The notes beneath the pieces are model-generated. The model did not search any database. It was given only the letters and a program-made list of their open reading frames with translations, and was not told where the DNA came from. Below are positions 44,517 through 58,447 of a stretch of DNA of 64,000 bases, piece after piece. The DNA is taken from positions 9,962 to 73,961 of the forward strand of contig JACZUF010000008.1 of the NCBI GenBank assembly GCA_022573285.1. Reading direction: 5' to 3'. Positions within the stretch are counted from its first letter, which is position 1. Each line of letters opens with the position of its first letter. The DNA comes from Chloroflexota bacterium (GTDB taxonomy: Bacteria > Chloroflexota > Dehalococcoidia > Lucifugimonadales > UBA3495). The translations under genes were made by a program, and so were the position numbers.

Positions 44517-45368
44517 ATGGCGACCAAGCAGATACCCACGGAAGAACAGGTGATCGGTTGGATGGACTCGCTCAGCAACTGGGGACGCTGGGGCGACGAC
44601 GACCAGATGGGCACTCTGAACCTGATTACCGACGCCAAACGGGCCCAGGCGGCCGGCCTGGTGAAAGAGGGCATCAGCGTCACCTGTTCCCGGCTGATCG
44701 TCCCGGAGCACGCCGCCGATGTCACATCGATCCCACCTCTGCACTACATGATCCGGGCCGGCGACACGGTCCCCGCCCAGGGTGGCGGCGGGACCTCCGA
44801 CTTCCTGGGATTCTCTTACCACGGTCTGACCATCACCCACATAGACGCGCTGTGCCACCAGGCCTGGAACGGCAAGCTCTACAACGGCAAGGACGCGTCC
44901 TTGGTCGGCAGCGAGACCAAGGCCACGGTGCTGGACATCGACCGGGCCCAGAACGGCATCATCACCCGGGGCGTCATGTTGGACATCGCCAAGGTGCGCG
45001 GCGTCGACTGGCTGGAGGCCGGCGAAGGCGTGTTCACCGAGGACCTGGAAGCCGCCGAGAAGGCTCAGGGCGTCCGGTTGGAAGAGGGCGACGCCCTGAT
45101 GCTGCGGCTGGGCTGGTACAAACGGCGGCTGGAGAAGGGCGCCCCCGCATCGGGCCGGCCCGGTCTCCACGCCGAAACCTTGCCGTGGCTGAAAGAGCGC
45201 GGCATCTCGATCGTCGGCATGGGACTATGGCTGATAGACGCCGCCAACTGCGAGGAACTGGCGGCAGTCTGCGAACGCCTGAACCGCTACGAGTTCATGT
45301 TCATCGTGGCCCCGCGGCGGTTCAAGAACGCCACCGGCTCCCCCACCAATCCCCTGGCCCTCTTCTAG
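44517..45368 (+). CDS. Putative cyclase family protein (kynurenine-formamidase-like fold)
   Basis: ...WGRWGDDDQMGTLNLIT... and ...SYHGLTITHIDALCH... resemble the HxGTHxDxPxH region of cyclase-family proteins. 283 aa. Confidence 0.7.
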   Translation: MATKQIPTEEQVIGWMDSLSNWGRWGDDDQMGTLNLITDAKRAQAAGLVKEGISVTCSRLIVPEHAADVTSIPPLHYMIRAGDTVPAQGGGGTSDFLGFSYHGLTITHIDALCHQAWNGKLYNGKDASLVGSETKATVLDIDRAQNGIITRGVMLDIAKVRGVDWLEAGEGVFTEDLEAAEKAQGVRLEEGDALMLRLGWYKRRLEKGAPASGRPGLHAETLPWLKERGISIVGMGLWLIDAANCEELAAVCERLNRYEFMFIVAPRRFKNATGSPTNPLALF

Positions 45369-45391
45369 GCCACCGGCCCGCCGGAGTAAAG

Positions 45392-45425
45392 AAGGGCTGC
45401 GGGTTTGACCCGCAGCCCTTTTTTG
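45392..45425 (+). terminator. Rho-independent terminator after the cyclase gene
   Basis: GGGCTGCGGG-tttga-CCCGCAGCCC followed by TTTTTTG. Confidence 0.8.
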
Positions 45426-45999
45426 TTTGGTCACCCTGCAAGTCGAGGTTTTGCAAAGAGTCCCCGTATATTTCTGCGATTTGGATCCGTATTGGGGAAG
45501 ACTTGGTCACCATGACGGATAGCTCTGCACAAAGGCGTCATCAACCGGGTTTGTAGCAGCCCAACAGCACGGCATTTAATAGACGTGAAGTTTCGTGACG
45601 ATTCCCCAGTCCTGGCATAGGTCCTTCGCTACGCTTACCATAGTCCGGAGATTGCGGTTCCCTCATTCCTCATAGCCTTGTCACCACGTTTTTGATAAAC
45701 TCCGCGGCCCCGCGGATATTCTCGTCCTGGACTCCACCGTGCCCTCCGCCAACAGACTCTTAGCCTTACCGTTTGACAAGTAACTTCCTTTTATGGTTAT
45801 ATCCTGACCTAAATAGTAAGGAAGCCGCCGATCACATAATGATCTCTGGACTCTTAGGCTGAAAGTTGCATCGCGTCATCTACTGTCAAAGCGCTTCGAG
45901 TAAATCTCGCCCGGCACTGACGAATAGCAGGAGGGGCGCTGTACTACCGATTTGTTGGCCTTGCATGAAGTCTGAACAACGACAATGCTAGGGGAAAAG

Positions 46000-47334
46000 A
46001 TGAAACAGGACAACGCAGGAATCAGCGGGAGATTTACGATTATCGCCATATCATTGTCGTTGGCGATAGGCATTTTTATGTCCTTAATGTTGCTCGGCAC
46101 CGTTTCAGCGAAGTCTGGATCTGACGCCACTTCCCAACTCGCTTTTTCGACGATAATGGCCAAGTTGACCGCCAACCAGGTATTGGAGAACCCCAGATCC
46201 AGCGCCACGCAGGCGAAGGTAACGACTGCCCCCACCGGATCGGCCACAGTCAAGGTTCCATTACTGTTTGAATTCACACTTAGTGTCACTGGAGCATCGG
46301 TGGCGTCTGTTCCTGTAACCGTGCTTGATACTCCACTTGGTGAACTAGGCGCTTACCAACTTAAGGTGAGCTACAATCCTGCCGTTATTCGGGCCACCAG
46401 CGTCTTGGGAGGCGCCTCACCGTTCGACGGAATAACCGCATTCAACGTCACGAGCCCAGTGACCGGAACCGAAGTTGTGGAATGGAACCATTTCCAAGGC
46501 GGGTCTGTGACCGTCCCAGCCTCAATCGACGTGGCGAATATTGTTTTTACTGCGGTAGGCGCGGCAGGAGAATGCAGCACCCTAGACCTAACGATAGTTG
46601 AACTGGTGGACAATTCCGCGGTATCTATCCCCAGCGTTGCGGAAGACGGCCAAGTCTGCCTTTTGGAGGCCTTCGCGAACGCCGAAACTTCCCTAATCGG
46701 GACTCAGGATGGAGACGACGCGGCCTTGCCTACAGGCGTTAAAGCAACGATTGACCAAATCAAGGATGCGGGATCTGGCGATCCCTTGCCTGGACGGCTG
46801 ATCGGAAGTTATAAGGCTGCACTCACCTTCCCCGCCTCCCTAGCCGAAGCCACTGATTGCCGGCTCAAGTCTCCTATTGACCAGAGCCCTACTAATTGCT
46901 CGATCAGTGCGGGCCTTGTCCAGCTTCAAGCCACGGCCGGCGTCACCGGCTCAGGGGTAACGGCGCCCATTGATCCATTGGCTTTCGTTGCGCTGCGGCT
47001 GATAGGTGCGAACAACTCGTTCACCACCGTGAACCTAAACTTTACGGAGATCAAGGATGACCTCGGAAATCTAATGCCTCAAATTTCTCCCCCAGACACC
47101 CGAACATTCCTGAGAGGTGATGCTCTGGCCGACGGCGGCATCTCGATAGGCGATGCGCTCTTCATCGGACAACACCTCGTGGCGGCTCGCCCCGTCGGGG
47201 AAGGTCCGGGTGAGGTTAACCCGGTCAATGCTGGAAGTGTGAAACACGACTCACCAAACGACTTTATCAGCCTCGCAGATGCGATTCTGATCGCCCAATT
47301 CTTGGTTGGTAACGTCGATGAGTTGTTCCAGTAG
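46000..47334 (+). CDS. Secreted protein with two cohesin-like domains and a C-terminal dockerin-like module
   Basis: Signal peptide/anchor (IIAISLSLAIGIFMSLMLLGTVSA). LGAYQLKVSYNPAVIRATSVLGG...IVFTAVGAAGECSTLDL... is a cohesin-type pattern, present twice. C-terminal GDALADGGISIGDALFIGQHLV ... NDFISLADAILIAQFLVG looks like a duplicated dockerin F-hand. Confidence 0.7.
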   Translation: MKQDNAGISGRFTIIAISLSLAIGIFMSLMLLGTVSAKSGSDATSQLAFSTIMAKLTANQVLENPRSSATQAKVTTAPTGSATVKVPLLFEFTLSVTGASVASVPVTVLDTPLGELGAYQLKVSYNPAVIRATSVLGGASPFDGITAFNVTSPVTGTEVVEWNHFQGGSVTVPASIDVANIVFTAVGAAGECSTLDLTIVELVDNSAVSIPSVAEDGQVCLLEAFANAETSLIGTQDGDDAALPTGVKATIDQIKDAGSGDPLPGRLIGSYKAALTFPASLAEATDCRLKSPIDQSPTNCSISAGLVQLQATAGVTGSGVTAPIDPLAFVALRLIGANNSFTTVNLNFTEIKDDLGNLMPQISPPDTRTFLRGDALADGGISIGDALFIGQHLVAARPVGEGPGEVNPVNAGSVKHDSPNDFISLADAILIAQFLVGNVDELFQ

Positions 47335-47404
47335 GGATAAAGGGTACTCAGCCACGTAGTGTAAAGGCTGAAGCACCGGACCCATTCACTACCAAGACTA
47401 GAAG

Positions 47405-47445
47405 CTCCGGCGAGGCAACCGCGAAACACGGTTGCCTCGCCGGAG
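47405..47445 (+). terminator. 17-bp perfect hairpin between the two cohesin genes (terminator or attenuator candidate, no U-tract)
   Basis: CTCCGGCGAGGCAACCG-cgaaaca-CGGTTGCCTCGCCGGAG read directly. It lies 70 nt after the stop at 47334. Confidence 0.5.
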
Positions 47446-47630
47446 GTACCTCAGACAAAGAGGCCACTCGAGTGTTCAGCGGTTATCGAACTAACGATTC
47501 CAACCCTCCTGCCGCCAGTCTTTCCACCCTGGACTTGGATTTCGTTGATATCAAAGAGAAATCAAAGATGGAATAGGAAGGCGTTATCCCGCCTTGGCCT
47601 GGAATTCTCGTATTAAACCCGGCCCGAAAT

Positions 47631-49289
47631 ATGAATCGGAGTGTTCTCTTGAATCTACAATCTTGGATTGGCGTAGTGCTTCTGGCGGCCTTCCTCTCAT
47701 TCGTCGTAGCGGGCTCTAATTTGCGAGTGGTCAGCGCCAACCACACGTACTTAGAAATATCCCCCAATCCGTTGTTTCTGACACCTGGTGGAAACGATGT
47801 ACTGGACCTTTGGGTGCGAGGCTTGGATGATTCCGATCAGCTAGGGAGTTACAACCTTACGTTGTCGTTTGATCCAAACGTGATCAGGATCGACAGTGTG
47901 GTCGGAGGCGATGCGCCGTTTGACAGTACACCGGACTTTACGGTGGACACCACCAAAGGGGAAGTCACGGTGATCGCGACTCCATCAACAGGAGAGCCCA
48001 GCAAAGAAGCACGAATCGCCCGGCTCAACGTAACTGCTGTGGGCGCATTAGATGACTCTTCACCGATCACGTTTACATCCGCTGAGTTGACCGACGGGAC
48101 CAATCAACCGATCAGCGCGGCCGCCGGAGACGGTGGGTCAGTAAACATTGCTAGTACGGTGGTACGCGTAGGCAGCGCGTCCGTCGCCCAAGGGCGCTCT
48201 ACCACCGTCCCCGTCACGGTTTCTTTCAGCCCCAGCGGTGGGCTCGCCGGATACAATATTTCCATAGACTATGATTCGGCAATTATCAAGATCGATGGAA
48301 TTCTGTCCGGCGATGCCCCATTCGGTGGTACCCCAATTTTCAACATAAACGAAGCCGAATCATTCGTTAATGTTGTTGGGTTCCACGGCGACCGCCCGGG
48401 CCCGGTTGGCCGTACTGTCGTGATGAATATGACGGTAACGGGCATTGCCAAGGGGACAAGCGGCTTGGGTCTCACAGTTAAAGACCTGGTCGATGCGGAA
48501 AATGCCGACAGTTGGACGGCAGCTGCCGTCGATGGCTTGGTACGGGTTCTAGCTGCCTCGTCCAATGTGGGCTCAACAGTGGAATCCGCTCTGGCATCTT
48601 CTTCATCTGAAACCGGAAAACCCGTGGTGCTTGAAGGAGCTGTGCTCGTAGATCTGACGCCCGGAGTTCTTTCGCAACTCAGTTTGCCGAATCAAAAAGC
48701 GACCCTGACTTTTCCAATTGGTTCGGTGACCGAGCGCGGCTTCGCGGCGATGAAACAGATTGATGCGGAGGCAACACCTTCCCCACCTTCGGGATTCAGT
48801 CACGGAACGGTTATCGAAGTTAACATGCTTGATTTGTCCGGAAATCTCTTATATGACGTATTCCTGTCCAAGCAAGCCACAATCAGCATGTCATTACCTG
48901 ATGCAAGTCGTATCACATCAGATATCGTCAATATCTCGATCCAGCGCTACGAGCCGGTCCTCGGTCGATGGCTTGCCTTACCCACCACAGTCGACCACGA
49001 GAATATGGTCGCGATAGCGGAGGTGGACCGATTAAGCATCTTCGCTCTAACGATAGATGGAACTATCGCGGCGGAAGCGTCGTCATCAACCACTTCGGAT
49101 GGGTCCGCGGTATCAGGTGATTCGCCGGCAACCCCTTCGGATGATTCTGCACCGTTGGGAGGAACGGACCAACCTGACGGAGGCGGAATTCCCGCTTGGG
49201 TCATAGTTCTGATAGTTGTAGGGATAGTGGCCCTGAGTGCGACTGGCTATTTCGTGTCACGCCCTAAGCGCATTCAGAGTCGGAGGTAA
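47631..49289 (+). CDS. Membrane-anchored protein with two cohesin-like domains, Ser-rich linker and C-terminal TM anchor
   Basis: N-terminal signal (WIGVVLLAAFLSFVVAGS). LGSYNLTLSFDPNVIRIDSVVGGDAPF... and LAGYNISIDYDSAIIKIDGILSGDAPF... cohesin patterns. C-terminal ...GGIPAWVIVLIVVGIVALSATGYFVSRPKRIQSRR. Confidence 0.7.
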   Translation: MNRSVLLNLQSWIGVVLLAAFLSFVVAGSNLRVVSANHTYLEISPNPLFLTPGGNDVLDLWVRGLDDSDQLGSYNLTLSFDPNVIRIDSVVGGDAPFDSTPDFTVDTTKGEVTVIATPSTGEPSKEARIARLNVTAVGALDDSSPITFTSAELTDGTNQPISAAAGDGGSVNIASTVVRVGSASVAQGRSTTVPVTVSFSPSGGLAGYNISIDYDSAIIKIDGILSGDAPFGGTPIFNINEAESFVNVVGFHGDRPGPVGRTVVMNMTVTGIAKGTSGLGLTVKDLVDAENADSWTAAAVDGLVRVLAASSNVGSTVESALASSSSETGKPVVLEGAVLVDLTPGVLSQLSLPNQKATLTFPIGSVTERGFAAMKQIDAEATPSPPSGFSHGTVIEVNMLDLSGNLLYDVFLSKQATISMSLPDASRITSDIVNISIQRYEPVLGRWLALPTTVDHENMVAIAEVDRLSIFALTIDGTIAAEASSSTTSDGSAVSGDSPATPSDDSAPLGGTDQPDGGGIPAWVIVLIVVGIVALSATGYFVSRPKRIQSRR

Positions 49290-49473
49290 AAAGGCATCAC
49301 CCAGGAATGGCGTGTGAACGTCACTGATCGGACCAACGATTTCCGCGCCGCAGGAACAACCCCGGCTCTTCTCCGGGCAGGTAAAAGAAATTCGGACCCC
49401 CTGCTCCTTAAAGGGAGAAGGGGGTCTTAAGTAGTCATGACTCACCACGCTATCGGAGATGGGAGCGAGCCCC

Positions 49474-51027
49474 CTACTTCCCCTCTTTAATCCAGTCGGA
49501 TATCCGCTCGCCGATCATCATGGTGGTCACGTTGGTGTTGGCGCGGATGCAATCGGGCATTATGGAGGCGTCCACAATCCGGAGTCCCTCCAGCCCATGG
49601 ACCTTGCCGTACTGGTCGACCACGGCCATGGGGTCGGAGTCCGGGCCCATCTTGCAAGTGCAGGAGATGTGCTGCGAGGTGGTCACTTCACGGTACAGGT
49701 ACTCGTCCAGCGCCTCATCCGAAGCCAGTTCGGCGTCGGTTGGCTCGATGCGCTCTTGAATGATGTCCTTGAAGGCCGGGTCCTCGCCCAGGGCCACGCA
49801 GATGCGTATCGTCTCCCGCAGGCGCTCCCGGTCGAACTCCTCCTCCAGGTAGCGGTAGTCCAAGAAGGGCTGCTCCGTTGGGTCGGCGGACTGGAGCCGC
49901 AGCTCTCCGGCGCCGGCAGCCAGCTGGATGCCGCTGGTCATCCGGATGCCCACGGGCTCCATCCGGTTGCCGCCCCGGTTGACCCGCTGGGTGGCGAATG
50001 ACTGCATGGAAACCTTCATGTCGTTGCGCAGGTTGGACCCGCCCGCGGTGTAGCGCAGGGTTGCCTGCATCCGGGGAGCGTTGCCGTCCAACTCAACCCC
50101 CGGCTTGGTGCGCCAGGTCACCCACACCAGCGGGTGGTCGCGCATGTTCTGGCCCACTCCGGGTGCGTCGTGGACCACCGGGATGCCGAACTCCTGTAGA
50201 TGTGCCGCCGGTCCGACGCCGGACAGCATCAGGATATGGGGCGAGCCGATGGCCCCGGAACTCAAGATTATCTCCGAGCCTTCGACCACGAAGTGCTCGC
50301 CGCCGCTCTCCACTTCGACGCCCGTGGCCCTCTTCCCGTCGAACAAGATGCGGCGGACGTGGCAGTTAGGCCGGATGGTCACGTTGAGACGGTGTCTGAT
50401 CTGGTCCAGATAGCCCAAAGCCGTGCTCATGCGGATGCCGTTGGGGTTATTCAGCGGCGTCGGGCCCACGCCGGTCGAATCGGGGTGGTTGTGGTCGGGG
50501 GAATCGGGGTAACCGGCGGCCCGGCAGGCCAGATAGAAGGCCTCGGTGGCTGGATGCCAGGTGTCCCGGGCGAAGCGGTGCATCATGATGGGCCCTTCCG
50601 TGCCGTGAAAGTCGTCGCTAAAGTCCGTGTCGGTCTCTATCTTCCGGAAATAGGGCAGGCAGTCCTGGTATCGCCACTCGTCGTTGCCCATCTCCGCCCA
50701 GGAGTCGTAGTCCTCGGGCACGCCCCGGAGGAAGACCTGACCGTTGATGGCGCTGGAGCCGCCGGTGACCTTGCCCCTGGGCACCAGCATCTCCGGGGCC
50801 TTTTCCGTGGCCTTGCCAATGAACTGCCAGTTGTGGTCGCTGACCATGATGTCGATCTCGGTTGCGTAGCCGAACTTCACCTCCTCTGGCAGGTGCTCGA
50901 AATCCGGGTAGTCCGGTCCCGCCTCGATCAGTAAGACGTTGTTGTTCGGGTCTTCGGAAAGCCGGGTCGCCACGATGGAACCGGCTGAACCGGCGCCCAA
51001 AACTATGTAGTCGTATTTCATGTCCAC
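49474..51027 (-). CDS. GMC-family oxidoreductase (choline/alcohol dehydrogenase-like)
   Basis: [27 protein letters not shown]...[10 protein letters not shown]...[14 protein letters not shown]... and the C-terminal ...[10 protein letters not shown]...VDASIMP... GMC signatures. Confidence 0.9.
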   Translation of the reverse strand: [517 protein letters not shown]

Positions 51028-57754: not shown

Positions 57755-58447
57755 CTATTCGATCTTGGCTGCTTTTTCCAAATTATGGCGGGCACAAAGA
57801 ATCCGAACGTTTTCGGGAAGAACACTCGTTCCGCCTTTCGAGAATGGGAACTCGTGGTCAAAATGAAGCTGATCTACGGCGTCACATATCACACATTTGC
57901 CCTTGTCACGTTTATACACCAACTGCTTGACCCACGAGGGGATTTGCCGCGAAACGACCATATTAATCTCTGATGACTCTTGAGCGGAGGTAGAATCAAA
58001 TCCCGCCGATTCCATCCAAAATTTGAAAACCTTCCGCGGCCCATCTTGTTGATAACTGAAGTCAACAAGACGATATAAGCCGCGATCCGTCCAAACCCCT
58101 GGGCGCATCTTCTCGTAAGTCCGAAAAATCGCCGCATCTGCTCCGTTTCCCTTAAAATTCTTCACGGCGCCAGCGAACAATCCGTTTTGAGATGGCTTGT
58201 CGTTAGTCTCAAAAAACGGTTGATCAATAACCTTCGGATCAGGTGTTTCAGAGTTGCGTCGAACGTCGTGACCTTCGTATATGAGAATTGACTCATCCTC
58301 ACTCATTTCGTCAGCGTAGGGGGCGTTCCTACGGCGTGACATCAAAATTACTCCGTGAGAAGGCGCATTTTTGAAATACATTCCTCTTTGCAAAGCCATA
58401 CCCTGGCGGCCGCACATTTCCCAATAGGTAAGAATTTCATCTTTCAT
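57755..58447 (-). CDS. HNH endonuclease with an N-terminal uncharacterised (possibly SRA/PUA-like modified-base reader) domain
   Basis: C-terminus CVICDAVDQLHFDHEFPFSKGGTSVLPENVRILCARHN is an HNH motif. The N-terminal ~160 aa include ...LQRGMYF...VILMS...LIYEGHD...GLYRLVDF...FKFWME. The gene and its flanks are visibly A+T-richer than the surroundings. Confidence 0.75.
   Translation of the reverse strand: MKDEILTYWEMCGRQGMALQRGMYFKNAPSHGVILMSRRRNAPYADEMSEDESILIYEGHDVRRNSETPDPKVIDQPFFETNDKPSQNGLFAGAVKNFKGNGADAAIFRTYEKMRPGVWTDRGLYRLVDFSYQQDGPRKVFKFWMESAGFDSTSAQESSEINMVVSRQIPSWVKQLVYKRDKGKCVICDAVDQLHFDHEFPFSKGGTSVLPENVRILCARHNLEKAAKIE

Follow-up and report, generated by a model that had tools for sequence, protein, structure and literature searches.

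The two adjacent genes described here lie on the plus strand of a 64,000-nucleotide (nt) stretch of DNA from a Chloroflexota bacterium (contig JACZUF010000008.1 of assembly GCA_022573285.1), which is called the window below, and they encode proteins built from modules of the cohesin-dockerin type. Gene 1 (46000-47334) codes for a cohesin, a second β-sandwich (domain 2) and a C-terminal dockerin-like module, and gene 2 (47631-49289) codes for two cohesins, a further β-sandwich (domain 3) and a predicted C-terminal transmembrane (TM) anchor. The reading that we favour, at a probability of roughly 0.6, is that the gene 2 protein is an anchoring scaffoldin and the gene 1 protein a monovalent adaptor, which together would form a non-cellulosomal assembly on the cell exterior. 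The case for it is based on the identities of the domains, on the conservation of the gene pair and on the recurrence of the C-terminal modules of gene 1 on other proteins.

Modules of the two proteins

In gene 2, the Pfam family Cohesin (PF00963) was matched with an E-value of 8.5e-14 and 52.4 bits, against a curated cut-off of 24.1, in two stretches, the better of which covers residues 67-173. The AlphaFold2 (AF2) model, built from a 12-sequence alignment and having a mean predicted local distance difference test (pLDDT) score of 70, consists of a helix (4-26), two β-sandwiches (34-173 and 176-307), a disordered linker, a third sandwich (338-476), a second disordered stretch (478-521) and a final helix (522-539). 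A Foldseek search with this model placed the cohesin dyad 3l8q first (E 1.4e-14), and the target-normalised template modelling scores (TM-scores) against the single cohesins 1ohz_A, 2xdh, 3ul4_A and 1aoh were 0.76-0.81; the predicted models show the nine-stranded, jelly-roll β-sandwich of the cohesin fold and can be superposed on solved cohesins. Cohesin 2, the best-conserved part of gene 2, carries the invariant motifs GLAGY, VGFH, RPGP and D285-L286-V287 as well as a nearly invariant K284. Directly ahead of cohesin 1, a V/A-x-A motif is kept in the gene 2 family, which is consistent with cleavage by signal peptidase.

The first-pass annotation, which had been made by reading the sequence alone, described gene 2 as a signal, two cohesin-like domains, a Ser-rich linker, a TM anchor and a basic tail. 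All of these parts were found, and what it overlooked is the third β-sandwich (about residues 336-478). This domain, which follows the cohesins and precedes the Ser-rich linker, showed no relationship to cohesin in hhalign comparisons and corresponds to no Pfam family, and a profile search of the PDB gave only chance-level matches (E 0.027, to a phosphotransacetylase). At the C-terminus of gene 2, there was no NCBIfam or Pfam match to a sorting signal, nor was there an S-layer homology (SLH) or sortase motif. More generally, NCBIfam had no match for the protein of either gene. A TTG codon at 47649, with GGAG ahead of it, is an alternative start and the one used by P0031, a product identical to that of gene 2 and annotated 'Chloroflexi bacterium'.

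For gene 1, the start at 46000 is favoured over an ATG at 45985 because homologues begin with MKQDN and because AGGGG stands upstream of the ATG at 46000. The AF2 model, from a 31-sequence alignment and with a mean pLDDT of 68, has an N-terminal hydrophobic helix (10-38), as expected from the signal or anchor claimed in the first-pass annotation, followed by a disordered linker, two β-sandwiches (82-223 and 226-371, both at pLDDT 75-93) and two C-terminal helices. The N-terminal region, that is, the signal helix and linker (residues 1-85 of a 449-residue form), has a mean pairwise identity of only 26% in the family, and a 'TVSAxSG'-type motif is kept among the homologues. Domain 1 scores 19 bits against PF00963 (E 0.0017), which is below the cut-off, but it is linked to both gene 2 cohesins by hhalign at a probability of 98% and by hmmsearch at E-values of 1e-13 to 1e-15. 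Several gene 1 homologues bear a precomputed PF00963 match, and the top Foldseek matches of the gene 1 model are cohesins, with target-normalised TM-scores of 0.64-0.73. All three cohesins of the pair are mutually homologous by hhalign (98%). The mean pairwise identity of the gene 1 cohesin in the family is 59%, a value that is given for both sandwiches.

The claim that gene 1 has two cohesins is supported for domain 1 but not for domain 2. The latter was aligned with the gene 1 cohesin by hhalign at a probability of 63% (E 6.9e-5 over 93 columns), and cohesin hidden Markov models (HMMs) reached only E 4.3 to 29 on it; a PDB search with its profile yielded nothing better than chance (E 0.2, to FlgK), and a Pfam scan of the whole protein gave nothing in this region. 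Domain 2 may therefore be, at best, a remote relative of cohesin. Four Cys residues, two in each sandwich, are invariant in gene 1, which fits an extracytoplasmic protein.

The last 80 or so residues of gene 1 form the dockerin-like module and are the best-conserved part of the family, with a mean pairwise identity of 78%. A tandem duplication of about 22 residues is present in this module, GDALADGGISIGDALFIGQHLV and HDSPNDFISLADAILIAQFLVG, in which both repeats have a loop-helix pattern (…D-A-L-F-I-G-Q-H-L-V and …D-A-I-L-I-A-Q-F-L-V) and to which helices 383-394 and 425-437 of the AF2 model correspond. When a profile of 15 family sequences was compared with the PDB, all six matches were dockerins (5m2s_B scored best, at E 2.2e-5, followed by others at 0.005, 0.02 and weaker). 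Pfam Dockerin_1 (PF00404) matches five of the 15 family members (best E 0.013), and relatives with the same module exceed the Pfam dockerin cut-off of 22.9 (P0156 with 27.1 bits and P0186 with 23.2 bits).

Conservation of the pair and possible assembly

The order of the modules, namely cohesin, domain 2 and dockerin in gene 1 and cohesin, cohesin and domain 3 in gene 2, is the same in all 10 loci that were mapped with HMMs (L001-L006 and L011-L014), and in L015 and L016 the same pair of cohesin-bearing genes was recognised from gene calls. These pairs occur in at least three neighbourhoods: between DLH hydrolases and an aminotransferase (L001-L005 and L016, whose proteins are each about 57-61% identical to gene 1 of the window), between an ABC transporter and an acetyl-CoA synthetase (L006 and L014), and between cyclase and GMC genes (the window). 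The pair family is confined to metagenome-assembled genomes (MAGs) of the SAR202/Dehalococcoidia type; one gene 1 homologue, P0015, is annotated 'SAR202 cluster bacterium'. That the two genes are conserved as a unit fits docking between their proteins.

The N-termini of the gene 1 homologues vary around a constant part made up of cohesin, domain 2 and dockerin (L005 8241-9992, which is P0015; L006 7536-9788, which is P0021; P0022; P0026). One form has an insertion of about 140 residues and another an N-terminal extension of about 300 residues, neither with a Pfam match, and others start with β-propellers of the YNCE/lactonase type or of other types (P0026, P0022).

Interruptions were seen in the gene 2 homologues of two lineages. 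In the first, a run of nine G residues (G9) splits the gene inside the first cohesin (L001 11661-11669, with the same in L002-L004; L013 1498-1506). It is the sole G-run of seven or more in these loci and is present in five of five independent assemblies, and the removal of one G restores a full-length protein of 534 residues with a signal peptide, two cohesins, domain 3 and a TM anchor. Slippage with phase variation, a fixed pseudogene and a systematic error of assembly are all conceivable explanations of the run. In the second lineage, the gene 2 homologue is frameshifted in domain 3 (L006 10982-11409, equivalent to L014 9470-9897) at a place with no homopolymer run, and the product as called (P0042, 369 residues) lacks the TM anchor; the gene 1 homologue of this lineage is intact and is extended at its N-terminus by a large segment that matches nothing in Pfam.

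Beyond the pair itself, a HMMER scan with gene 1 of 1.84 billion representative sequences retrieved 402 clusters at E≤1e-3, 174 of them at E≤1e-10. Many of the best 150 clusters are proteins of 600-2,500 residues in which the C-terminus is similar to residues of about 225-443 of gene 1 (domain 2 and dockerin) or of about 95-443 (cohesin, domain 2 and dockerin). In many of these best 150, domain 2 and the dockerin co-occur as a unit at the C-termini of otherwise unrelated proteins. In 31 large relatives, Pfam identified Cohesin (11 proteins), Peptidase_S8 (9), PKD (8) and Dockerin_1 (6), along with SBBP or NHL propellers, β-helix/NosD, CarboxypepD_reg and PhoD_N; there was no glycoside hydrolase among the 25 most frequent families in the large relatives that carry this module. 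P0109, for example, combines a fervidolysin-type prodomain and a subtilase with a C-terminal triad of cohesin, domain 2 and dockerin, and in P0156 such a triad scores 28.3 bits for Cohesin and 27.1 bits for Dockerin_1. Gene 1 of the window, which carries no cargo, is the minimal version of this cassette.

A profile search of 5.8 billion proteins added 63 further dockerin-like open reading frames (ORFs), mostly short, of which three have a precomputed PF00404 match and the few with a named source are annotated Chloroflexi or Dehalococcoidia. The short ORFs keep the C-terminal half of domain 2, and in L008 a segment resembling domain 2 stands immediately ahead of the dockerin. Because the dyad recurs as one unit, domain 2 appears to behave like the X module in the X-dockerin dyads of cellulosomes. 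The best multi-domain Foldseek matches of gene 1 were likewise to the CohI9-X-DocII region of CipA (4fl4_L and 3kcp_A, E about 1e-10, at a high root-mean-square deviation). At the level of sequence, the PDB profile search returned no match between domain 2 and the X modules of cellulosomes.

Among the distant relatives, stand-alone dockerin-like ORFs of 98-165 residues lie directly after genes for large surface proteins (CBM96/Calx-β and a Pel9A-like β-helix). Their positions are L007 6001-6297, L008 5491-6297, L009 6001-7050 and L010 6001-6498, the last in a Chloroflexi MAG, and transposases occur nearby in L007-L009. In L009, the ORF directly precedes a cadherin/Big_9 protein with a weak N-terminal match to cohesin (E 6e-6). 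Some of these stand-alone ORFs may be C-termini severed by frameshifts.

How the two proteins might work together can be outlined as follows. Genes 1 and 2 would be expressed as one transcription unit. The gene 2 protein would be exported by the Sec route, its signal peptide would be cleaved, and its C-terminal TM helix would remain in the membrane with the basic tail inside, while the Ser-rich stalk and the third β-sandwich would keep the two cohesins off the membrane. The gene 1 protein, as a monovalent adaptor, would plug its C-terminal dyad of domain 2 and dockerin into a gene 2 cohesin, most probably cohesin 2, which is the candidate docking site because it is more conserved than cohesin 1 (63% against 47%). 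The cohesin of gene 1 would then present a further socket for proteins ending in the same dyad. Such cargo, if it follows the wider family, might include subtilases and β-propeller, β-helix and PKD-repeat proteins encoded elsewhere in the genome. An extracellular location is supported by the signal-type N-termini and invariant Cys residues of gene 1 and by the TM helix and basic tail of gene 2. A six-frame hmmsearch of the window found no dockerin or cohesin outside the pair, and the window contains no glycoside hydrolase, carbohydrate-binding module (CBM) or second dockerin, so that the dockerin-bearing glycoside hydrolases and CBM-containing scaffoldin that define a cellulosome are missing from these 64 kb; here the first-pass annotation, which had seen no such enzyme nearby and had called the scaffold non-cellulosomal, proved right.

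Several observations weigh against this scheme. Firstly, the window has one dockerin for three cohesins, and a strict pattern search of 185,579 species-representative genomes returned only four Dehalococcoidia/Chloroflexota MAGs with one locus each. Secondly, gene 2 is interrupted in two lineages in both of which gene 1 is intact, so that a strict need of gene 1 for gene 2 may not exist. Thirdly, the long N-terminal hydrophobic helix of gene 1 could be an uncleaved anchor, in which case docking would not be needed for attachment to the cell. Finally, the dockerin itself has weak points. The window segment taken alone has no Pfam match, and phmmer relates it to the Ruminococcus flavefaciens dockerin 5m2s_B only at E 0.07; homology to dockerins is therefore supported for the family rather than for this single sequence. 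In the AF2 model, the module (residues 371-444) is limited to two helices at a pLDDT of 31-41. The canonical Ca2+ residues, Asp or Asn at positions 1, 3, 5, 9 and 12, are absent as a full set from both repeats. The loop of repeat 1 (D-A-L-A-D-G-G-I-S-I-G-D) has Asp at positions 1 and 12, Leu at 3 and Ser at 9, and across the family position 3 is L, Q, S or K and position 5 is D or N. The loop of repeat 2 (H-D-S-P-N-D-F-I-S-L-A-D) has a D...D...D arrangement with an 11-residue spacing, which is one residue short, or, counted as 12 residues, begins with His.

Canonical loops are retained in more distant clade members (for example P0077, D-T-N-N-D-G-V-V-N-I-V-D; P0105, D-A-N-G-D-G-Q-V-T-I-T-D), which suggests that the gene 1 family is a derived dockerin subfamily in which the dependence on Ca is uncertain; to judge from the loops, Ca2+ binding by the gene 1 module may be weakened or lost. 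The duplicated C-terminal dockerin of the first-pass annotation is thus upheld as a duplication and as a homology at the level of the profile (E 2.2e-5) but not as a module with canonical Ca loops or a confident three-dimensional model.

One alternative takes these weak points further and supposes that the dockerin is degenerate and binds neither Ca2+ nor cohesin any longer, so that the pair would be co-expressed but independent adhesin-like or envelope proteins, and the C-terminus of gene 1 would serve in folding, as a secretion or sorting signal, or in binding to a wall polymer. The non-canonical loops that run throughout the gene 1 family while distant members are canonical, the lack of a Pfam match for the window sequence, the low AF2 confidence and the survival of gene 1 beside a disrupted gene 2 could all be explained in this way. 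However, the module in question is the most conserved of all (78%), as if it were a strongly constrained interaction surface, and positions 1, 5 and 12 of the repeat 1 loop keep acidic or amide residues. Moreover, every related locus has gene 1 strictly next to a gene that encodes cohesins, and even the stand-alone dockerin ORF of L009 lies directly upstream of a weakly cohesin-like protein (E 6e-6). We consider this alternative unlikely.

Another possibility is a self-assembling filament or lattice, in which the dockerin of one gene 1 protein binds the cohesin of the next, head to tail, with gene 2 serving as the seed; this would be the extendable scaffold that the first-pass annotation had proposed. 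Gene 1 has both partner modules and no cargo, there is a single dockerin type for three related cohesins in the window, and each of the four matching species-representative genomes has one locus; the mutual homology of the three cohesins (98% by hhalign) makes a shared specificity possible. The occurrence of the dyad or triad on hundreds of proteins with real cargo, however, suits a display system better than a homopolymer, and conservation is lower in the gene 1 cohesin (59%) than in the dockerin to which it would have to bind (78%). A filament is therefore judged improbable.

Elements of these readings might also be combined. SAR202-type Chloroflexi and their relatives might use a general cohesin-dockerin display in which gene 2 is the membrane socket, the β-sandwich and the Ca-loop-degenerate dockerin are a universal C-terminal tag (on subtilases, phosphatases and adhesin-like proteins), and gene 1 is a head-to-tail chain extender that multiplies the sockets; the low G+C content at third codon positions (GC3, see below) and the G9 run would then mark a variable, possibly phase-switched surface organelle in a bacterial group that ranks among the most abundant of the deep ocean. 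This composite is speculative, and we consider it improbable. The arrangement of an anchoring scaffoldin and a monovalent adaptor remains the reading that we prefer.

Genomic setting and origin of the pair

The features of the locus are collected in Table 1. The same arrangement is found in two other independent assemblies (L017 and L018), which argues that the locus is not an assembly chimera. The two annotated genes on each side, encoding a Trp-halogenase-like FAD enzyme and a cyclase upstream and a GMC oxidoreductase and a DinB protein downstream, are metabolic, as the first-pass annotation had said of the neighbourhood. The bounding hairpins that it had proposed are both real by their folding statistics; the upstream terminator hairpin is unique within the window and no dispersed repeat, and the right-boundary hairpin has a T-rich tail on the minus strand.

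Table 1. Features of the cohesin-dockerin gene pair and its surroundings (window coordinates; dG, folding energy; identities are mean pairwise values)
Feature	Position	Strand	Basis
Left-boundary element: intrinsic terminator belonging to the cyclase gene upstream	45388..45424	+	17-bp stem and T-run, dG -30.7, z -7.0
Promoter-like motif TTGACA - 18 nt - TGnTTATAT (extended -10), putative	45773..45802	+	read from the sequence
Conserved block in the putative 5' leader (AATCTCGCCCGGCACTGACGAATAGCAGGAGGGGCGCT)	45903..45940	+	kept in L015, not in more distant relatives; no Rfam match
Gene 1 residues 1-38, predicted signal peptide or signal-anchor: long hydrophobic helix, then V-S-A followed by K	46000..46113	+	AF2 helix 10-38
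Gene 1 residues 39-80, poorly conserved disordered linker	46114..46239	+	pLDDT <50 at residues 35-78
Gene 1 residues 81-224, cohesin with two invariant Cys	46240..46671	+	hhalign, hmmsearch, Foldseek
Gene 1 residues 225-371, domain 2 β-sandwich with two invariant Cys, always ahead of this dockerin type	46672..47112	+	pLDDT 75-93
Gene 1 residues 372-444 and stop, dockerin-like: duplicated loop-helix (GDALADGGISIGDALFIGQHLV and HDSPNDFISLADAILIAQFLVG)	47113..47334	+	family profile against the PDB
Intercistronic hairpin, perfect 17 bp, 71 nt past the gene 1 stop, no T-run	47405..47445	+	dG -38.4, z -7.0
Gene 2 residues 1-36, predicted signal peptide ending V-S-A before N	47631..47738	+	AF2 helix 4-26
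Gene 2 residues 37-175, cohesin 1	47739..48155	+	Pfam; AF2 pLDDT 75-95; 47% identity
Gene 2 residues 176-312, cohesin 2, best-conserved part of gene 2	48156..48566	+	63% identity
Gene 2 residues 336-478, third β-sandwich, family unassigned	48636..49064	+	AF2 pLDDT about 60-87; invariant IQRYEP and W motifs
Gene 2 residues 479-552 and stop: Ser/Asp/Pro-rich disordered linker, TM helix (about 521-540), basic tail RPKRIQSRR	49065..49289	+	AF2; layout kept in homologues
Right-boundary hairpin between the convergent gene 2 and GMC oxidoreductase gene	49394..49427	.	dG -25.4 and z -3.4 (+), dG -23.1 (-)

The unit starts with 574 nt of non-coding DNA (45426-45999, GC 0.50), in agreement with the figure of about 570 nt in the first-pass annotation; the ORFs within it are all antisense or out of frame and have no coding signature. 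The promoter-like motif in this region would give a leader of about 190 nt ahead of gene 1. It is kept as TTGACA-18-TGnTTATAT in L015, the closest relative, and 'TTTGACA' recurs upstream of the gene 1 homologues of L015, L016, L001, L005 and L011; the full motif ends 200 nt (L015) and 169 nt (L001) before the start codon. A consensus scan for promoters and terminators, in which the number of sites did not exceed that in shuffled sequences, did not call this TTGACA-18-TTATAT motif. The stem base of the intercistronic hairpin is also kept in L015, and the hairpin might be an attenuator or an element of mRNA stability. On this reading, the pair would form a single transcription unit with one promoter, a long leader and, between the genes, an attenuator or stabiliser. 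A search of Rfam over 45300-49600 at E≤1 gave only sub-threshold chance matches (ylbH over the terminator with 33.9 against the required 50 bits, sraA and a miRNA).

The conserved leader block sits 60-95 nt before the start of gene 1; a sigma-54 reading of it was dropped on account of an unsuitable GG/GC spacing. A second block, at 45714-45754 just upstream of the promoter-like -35, is likewise kept in L015 (78% identical) and not farther away, and has no Rfam match.

The segment is A+T-richer than its surroundings, as had been noted from the sequence: its GC content is 0.53-0.57 across 45-49 kb, compared with about 0.62 in the flanks. The shift is at synonymous sites. GC3 is 0.591 in gene 1 and 0.553 in gene 2, whereas the mean for 33 genes of the window is 0.794 (standard deviation 0.055, minimum 0.677), which corresponds to z-scores of -3.7 and -4.4; the leave-one-out z-scores for codon usage are -3.3 and -4.2. 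The orthologous pairs are similarly offset from their own flanks (0.58/0.55 against about 0.72 in L001, 0.69/0.69 against about 0.81 in L005 and 0.67/0.57 against about 0.75 in L006), and the offset tracks the GC content of each host. Since the relatives share the dip, it is taken to be a long-standing trait of the pair and not the mark of a recent import. It might be due to a relaxed or different codon selection in genes for surface proteins or to recurrent exchange within the clade.

The first-pass annotation had attributed the composition to horizontal acquisition, a claim that is not supported, given the same dip in three relatives, the synteny in three lineages (L001 and L005 included) and the lack of a signature of mobility. 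A recent genomic island from a donor of lower GC, which would concern the origin alone and be compatible with any functional model, could draw on the z-scores for GC3 and codon usage, on the presence of the pair in at least three different neighbourhoods and on another low-GC ORF, similar to an HNH nuclease, 8 kb away, but it is very improbable in view of the equal relative dip in the L001, L005 and L006 pairs, the synteny of L001-L005 and L016 in spite of an identity of only about 57-61% to window gene 1, the restriction of the family to MAGs of the SAR202/Dehalococcoidia type, and the lack of a tRNA within the window, of flanking direct or terminal inverted repeats, and of an integrase or transposase among the two annotated genes on each side. 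In a search for an empty site, the exact flanking cyclase protein was not recorded elsewhere, and the other contigs with an identical gene 2 share the same context.

The low-GC ORF just mentioned (57755-58447, minus strand, 230 residues) has the lowest GC3 of the ORFs compared (GC 0.47, GC3 0.49, z -5.5). No Pfam family matches it. A motif resembling that of HNH nucleases, C-x2-C … H-F-D-H … N … C-A-R-H-N, is present in its C-terminal part, and the ORF is probably of foreign origin, coding for a nuclease or a defence protein that has nothing to do with the cohesin pair.

Relation to known systems and significance

The comparison with known systems suggests, on computational grounds, that the gene pair represents a known type of protein-assembly system, in a version not directed at cellulose, and not a new kind of system. 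ScaC of Ruminococcus flavefaciens is an adaptor scaffoldin with one cohesin and one dockerin, and the ScaC cohesin-dockerin complex 5lxv was among the Foldseek matches. Like ScaC, gene 1 would be a small secreted protein with just one cohesin and, at its C-terminus, a dockerin; it would attach to a larger scaffoldin and make another socket available. It differs in that a further β-sandwich separates its cohesin from its dockerin and that its Ca loops are non-canonical; moreover, its host is of the aerobic marine or lake Chloroflexi type and not a rumen fibre degrader, and no glycoside hydrolase partners were seen.

The C-terminus of CipA from Clostridium thermocellum (CohI9, X module and type II dockerin; 3kcp and 4fl4), which binds to SdbA, has the same order of modules as gene 1. 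In both cases, a β-sandwich and a dockerin travel as a dyad, and the partner is, or in our scheme would be, a cell-bound cohesin protein. However, domain 2 showed no sequence match to the X module and is by hhalign, if anything, a remote relative of cohesin; neither a CBM nor an enzyme-bearing array of cohesins is present here; and the anchor of gene 2 is a C-terminal TM helix, whereas the SdbA system relies on SLH repeats. The anchoring scaffoldins of cellulosomes include SdbA, OlpB and Orf2p, which have SLH repeats, and ScaE, which has an LPXTG motif. Gene 2 resembles them in the Ser/Pro-rich linker between the cohesins and the anchor and in the proposed role of its cell-bound cohesins, which would receive the dockerin of another scaffoldin, and departs from them in using a TM helix and basic tail in place of an SLH or sortase motif and in having an additional β-sandwich.

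Outside cellulosomes, cohesin and dockerin modules were catalogued by Peer et al. 2009, as cited in PMC6461901. For the cohesin-dockerin pair of Archaeoglobus fulgidus (2xdh; Voronov-Goldman 2011, as cited in PMC9705933), binding was shown and has been used for surface display. This pair, too, is a cohesin and a dockerin without a cellulosome, and 2xdh is among the closest single-domain matches (target-normalised TM-score 0.80). The present case belongs to another lineage, and its putative partners are encoded side by side as a conserved unit of two genes, one of them for a dedicated two-cohesin protein with a predicted TM anchor. Another comparable system is the 'planctosome', a hypothesis put forward for freshwater Planctomycetes (Nemodlikiaceae) in which an in-silico anchor and a dockerin/cohesin adaptor display peptidases rather than cellulases (PMC6461901). 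The scheme of anchor and adaptor is shared, as is the presence of peptidases, since the wider gene 1 family likewise bears subtilases, and both proposals are in-silico only. The differences are the phylum, the sets of domains (LTD, P-domains and hyaline repeats in the planctosome) and the anchor, which in the planctosome is an outer-membrane tether. A search of the literature found no paper that ties SAR202 or Chloroflexi to a cohesin-dockerin system.

At present, the finding amounts to a well-supported annotation and a testable model and introduces no new principle. To our knowledge, non-cellulosomal cohesin-dockerin pairs have been catalogued and only rarely explained, and what is added here is a conserved two-gene unit of this type, made up of a membrane anchor and a putative adaptor, in SAR202-type Chloroflexi. 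If the pair binds as proposed, it would provide protein engineering with a compact, orthogonal cohesin-dockerin pair that is possibly independent of Ca. SAR202-type Chloroflexi are uncultured and abundant in the deep ocean and in lake water. For these monoderm-like cells, binding between the two proteins would offer a way of holding exo-enzymes and adhesins at the surface that needs neither sortase nor SLH anchors and, if true, would bear on how SAR202-type cells process dissolved and particulate organic matter.

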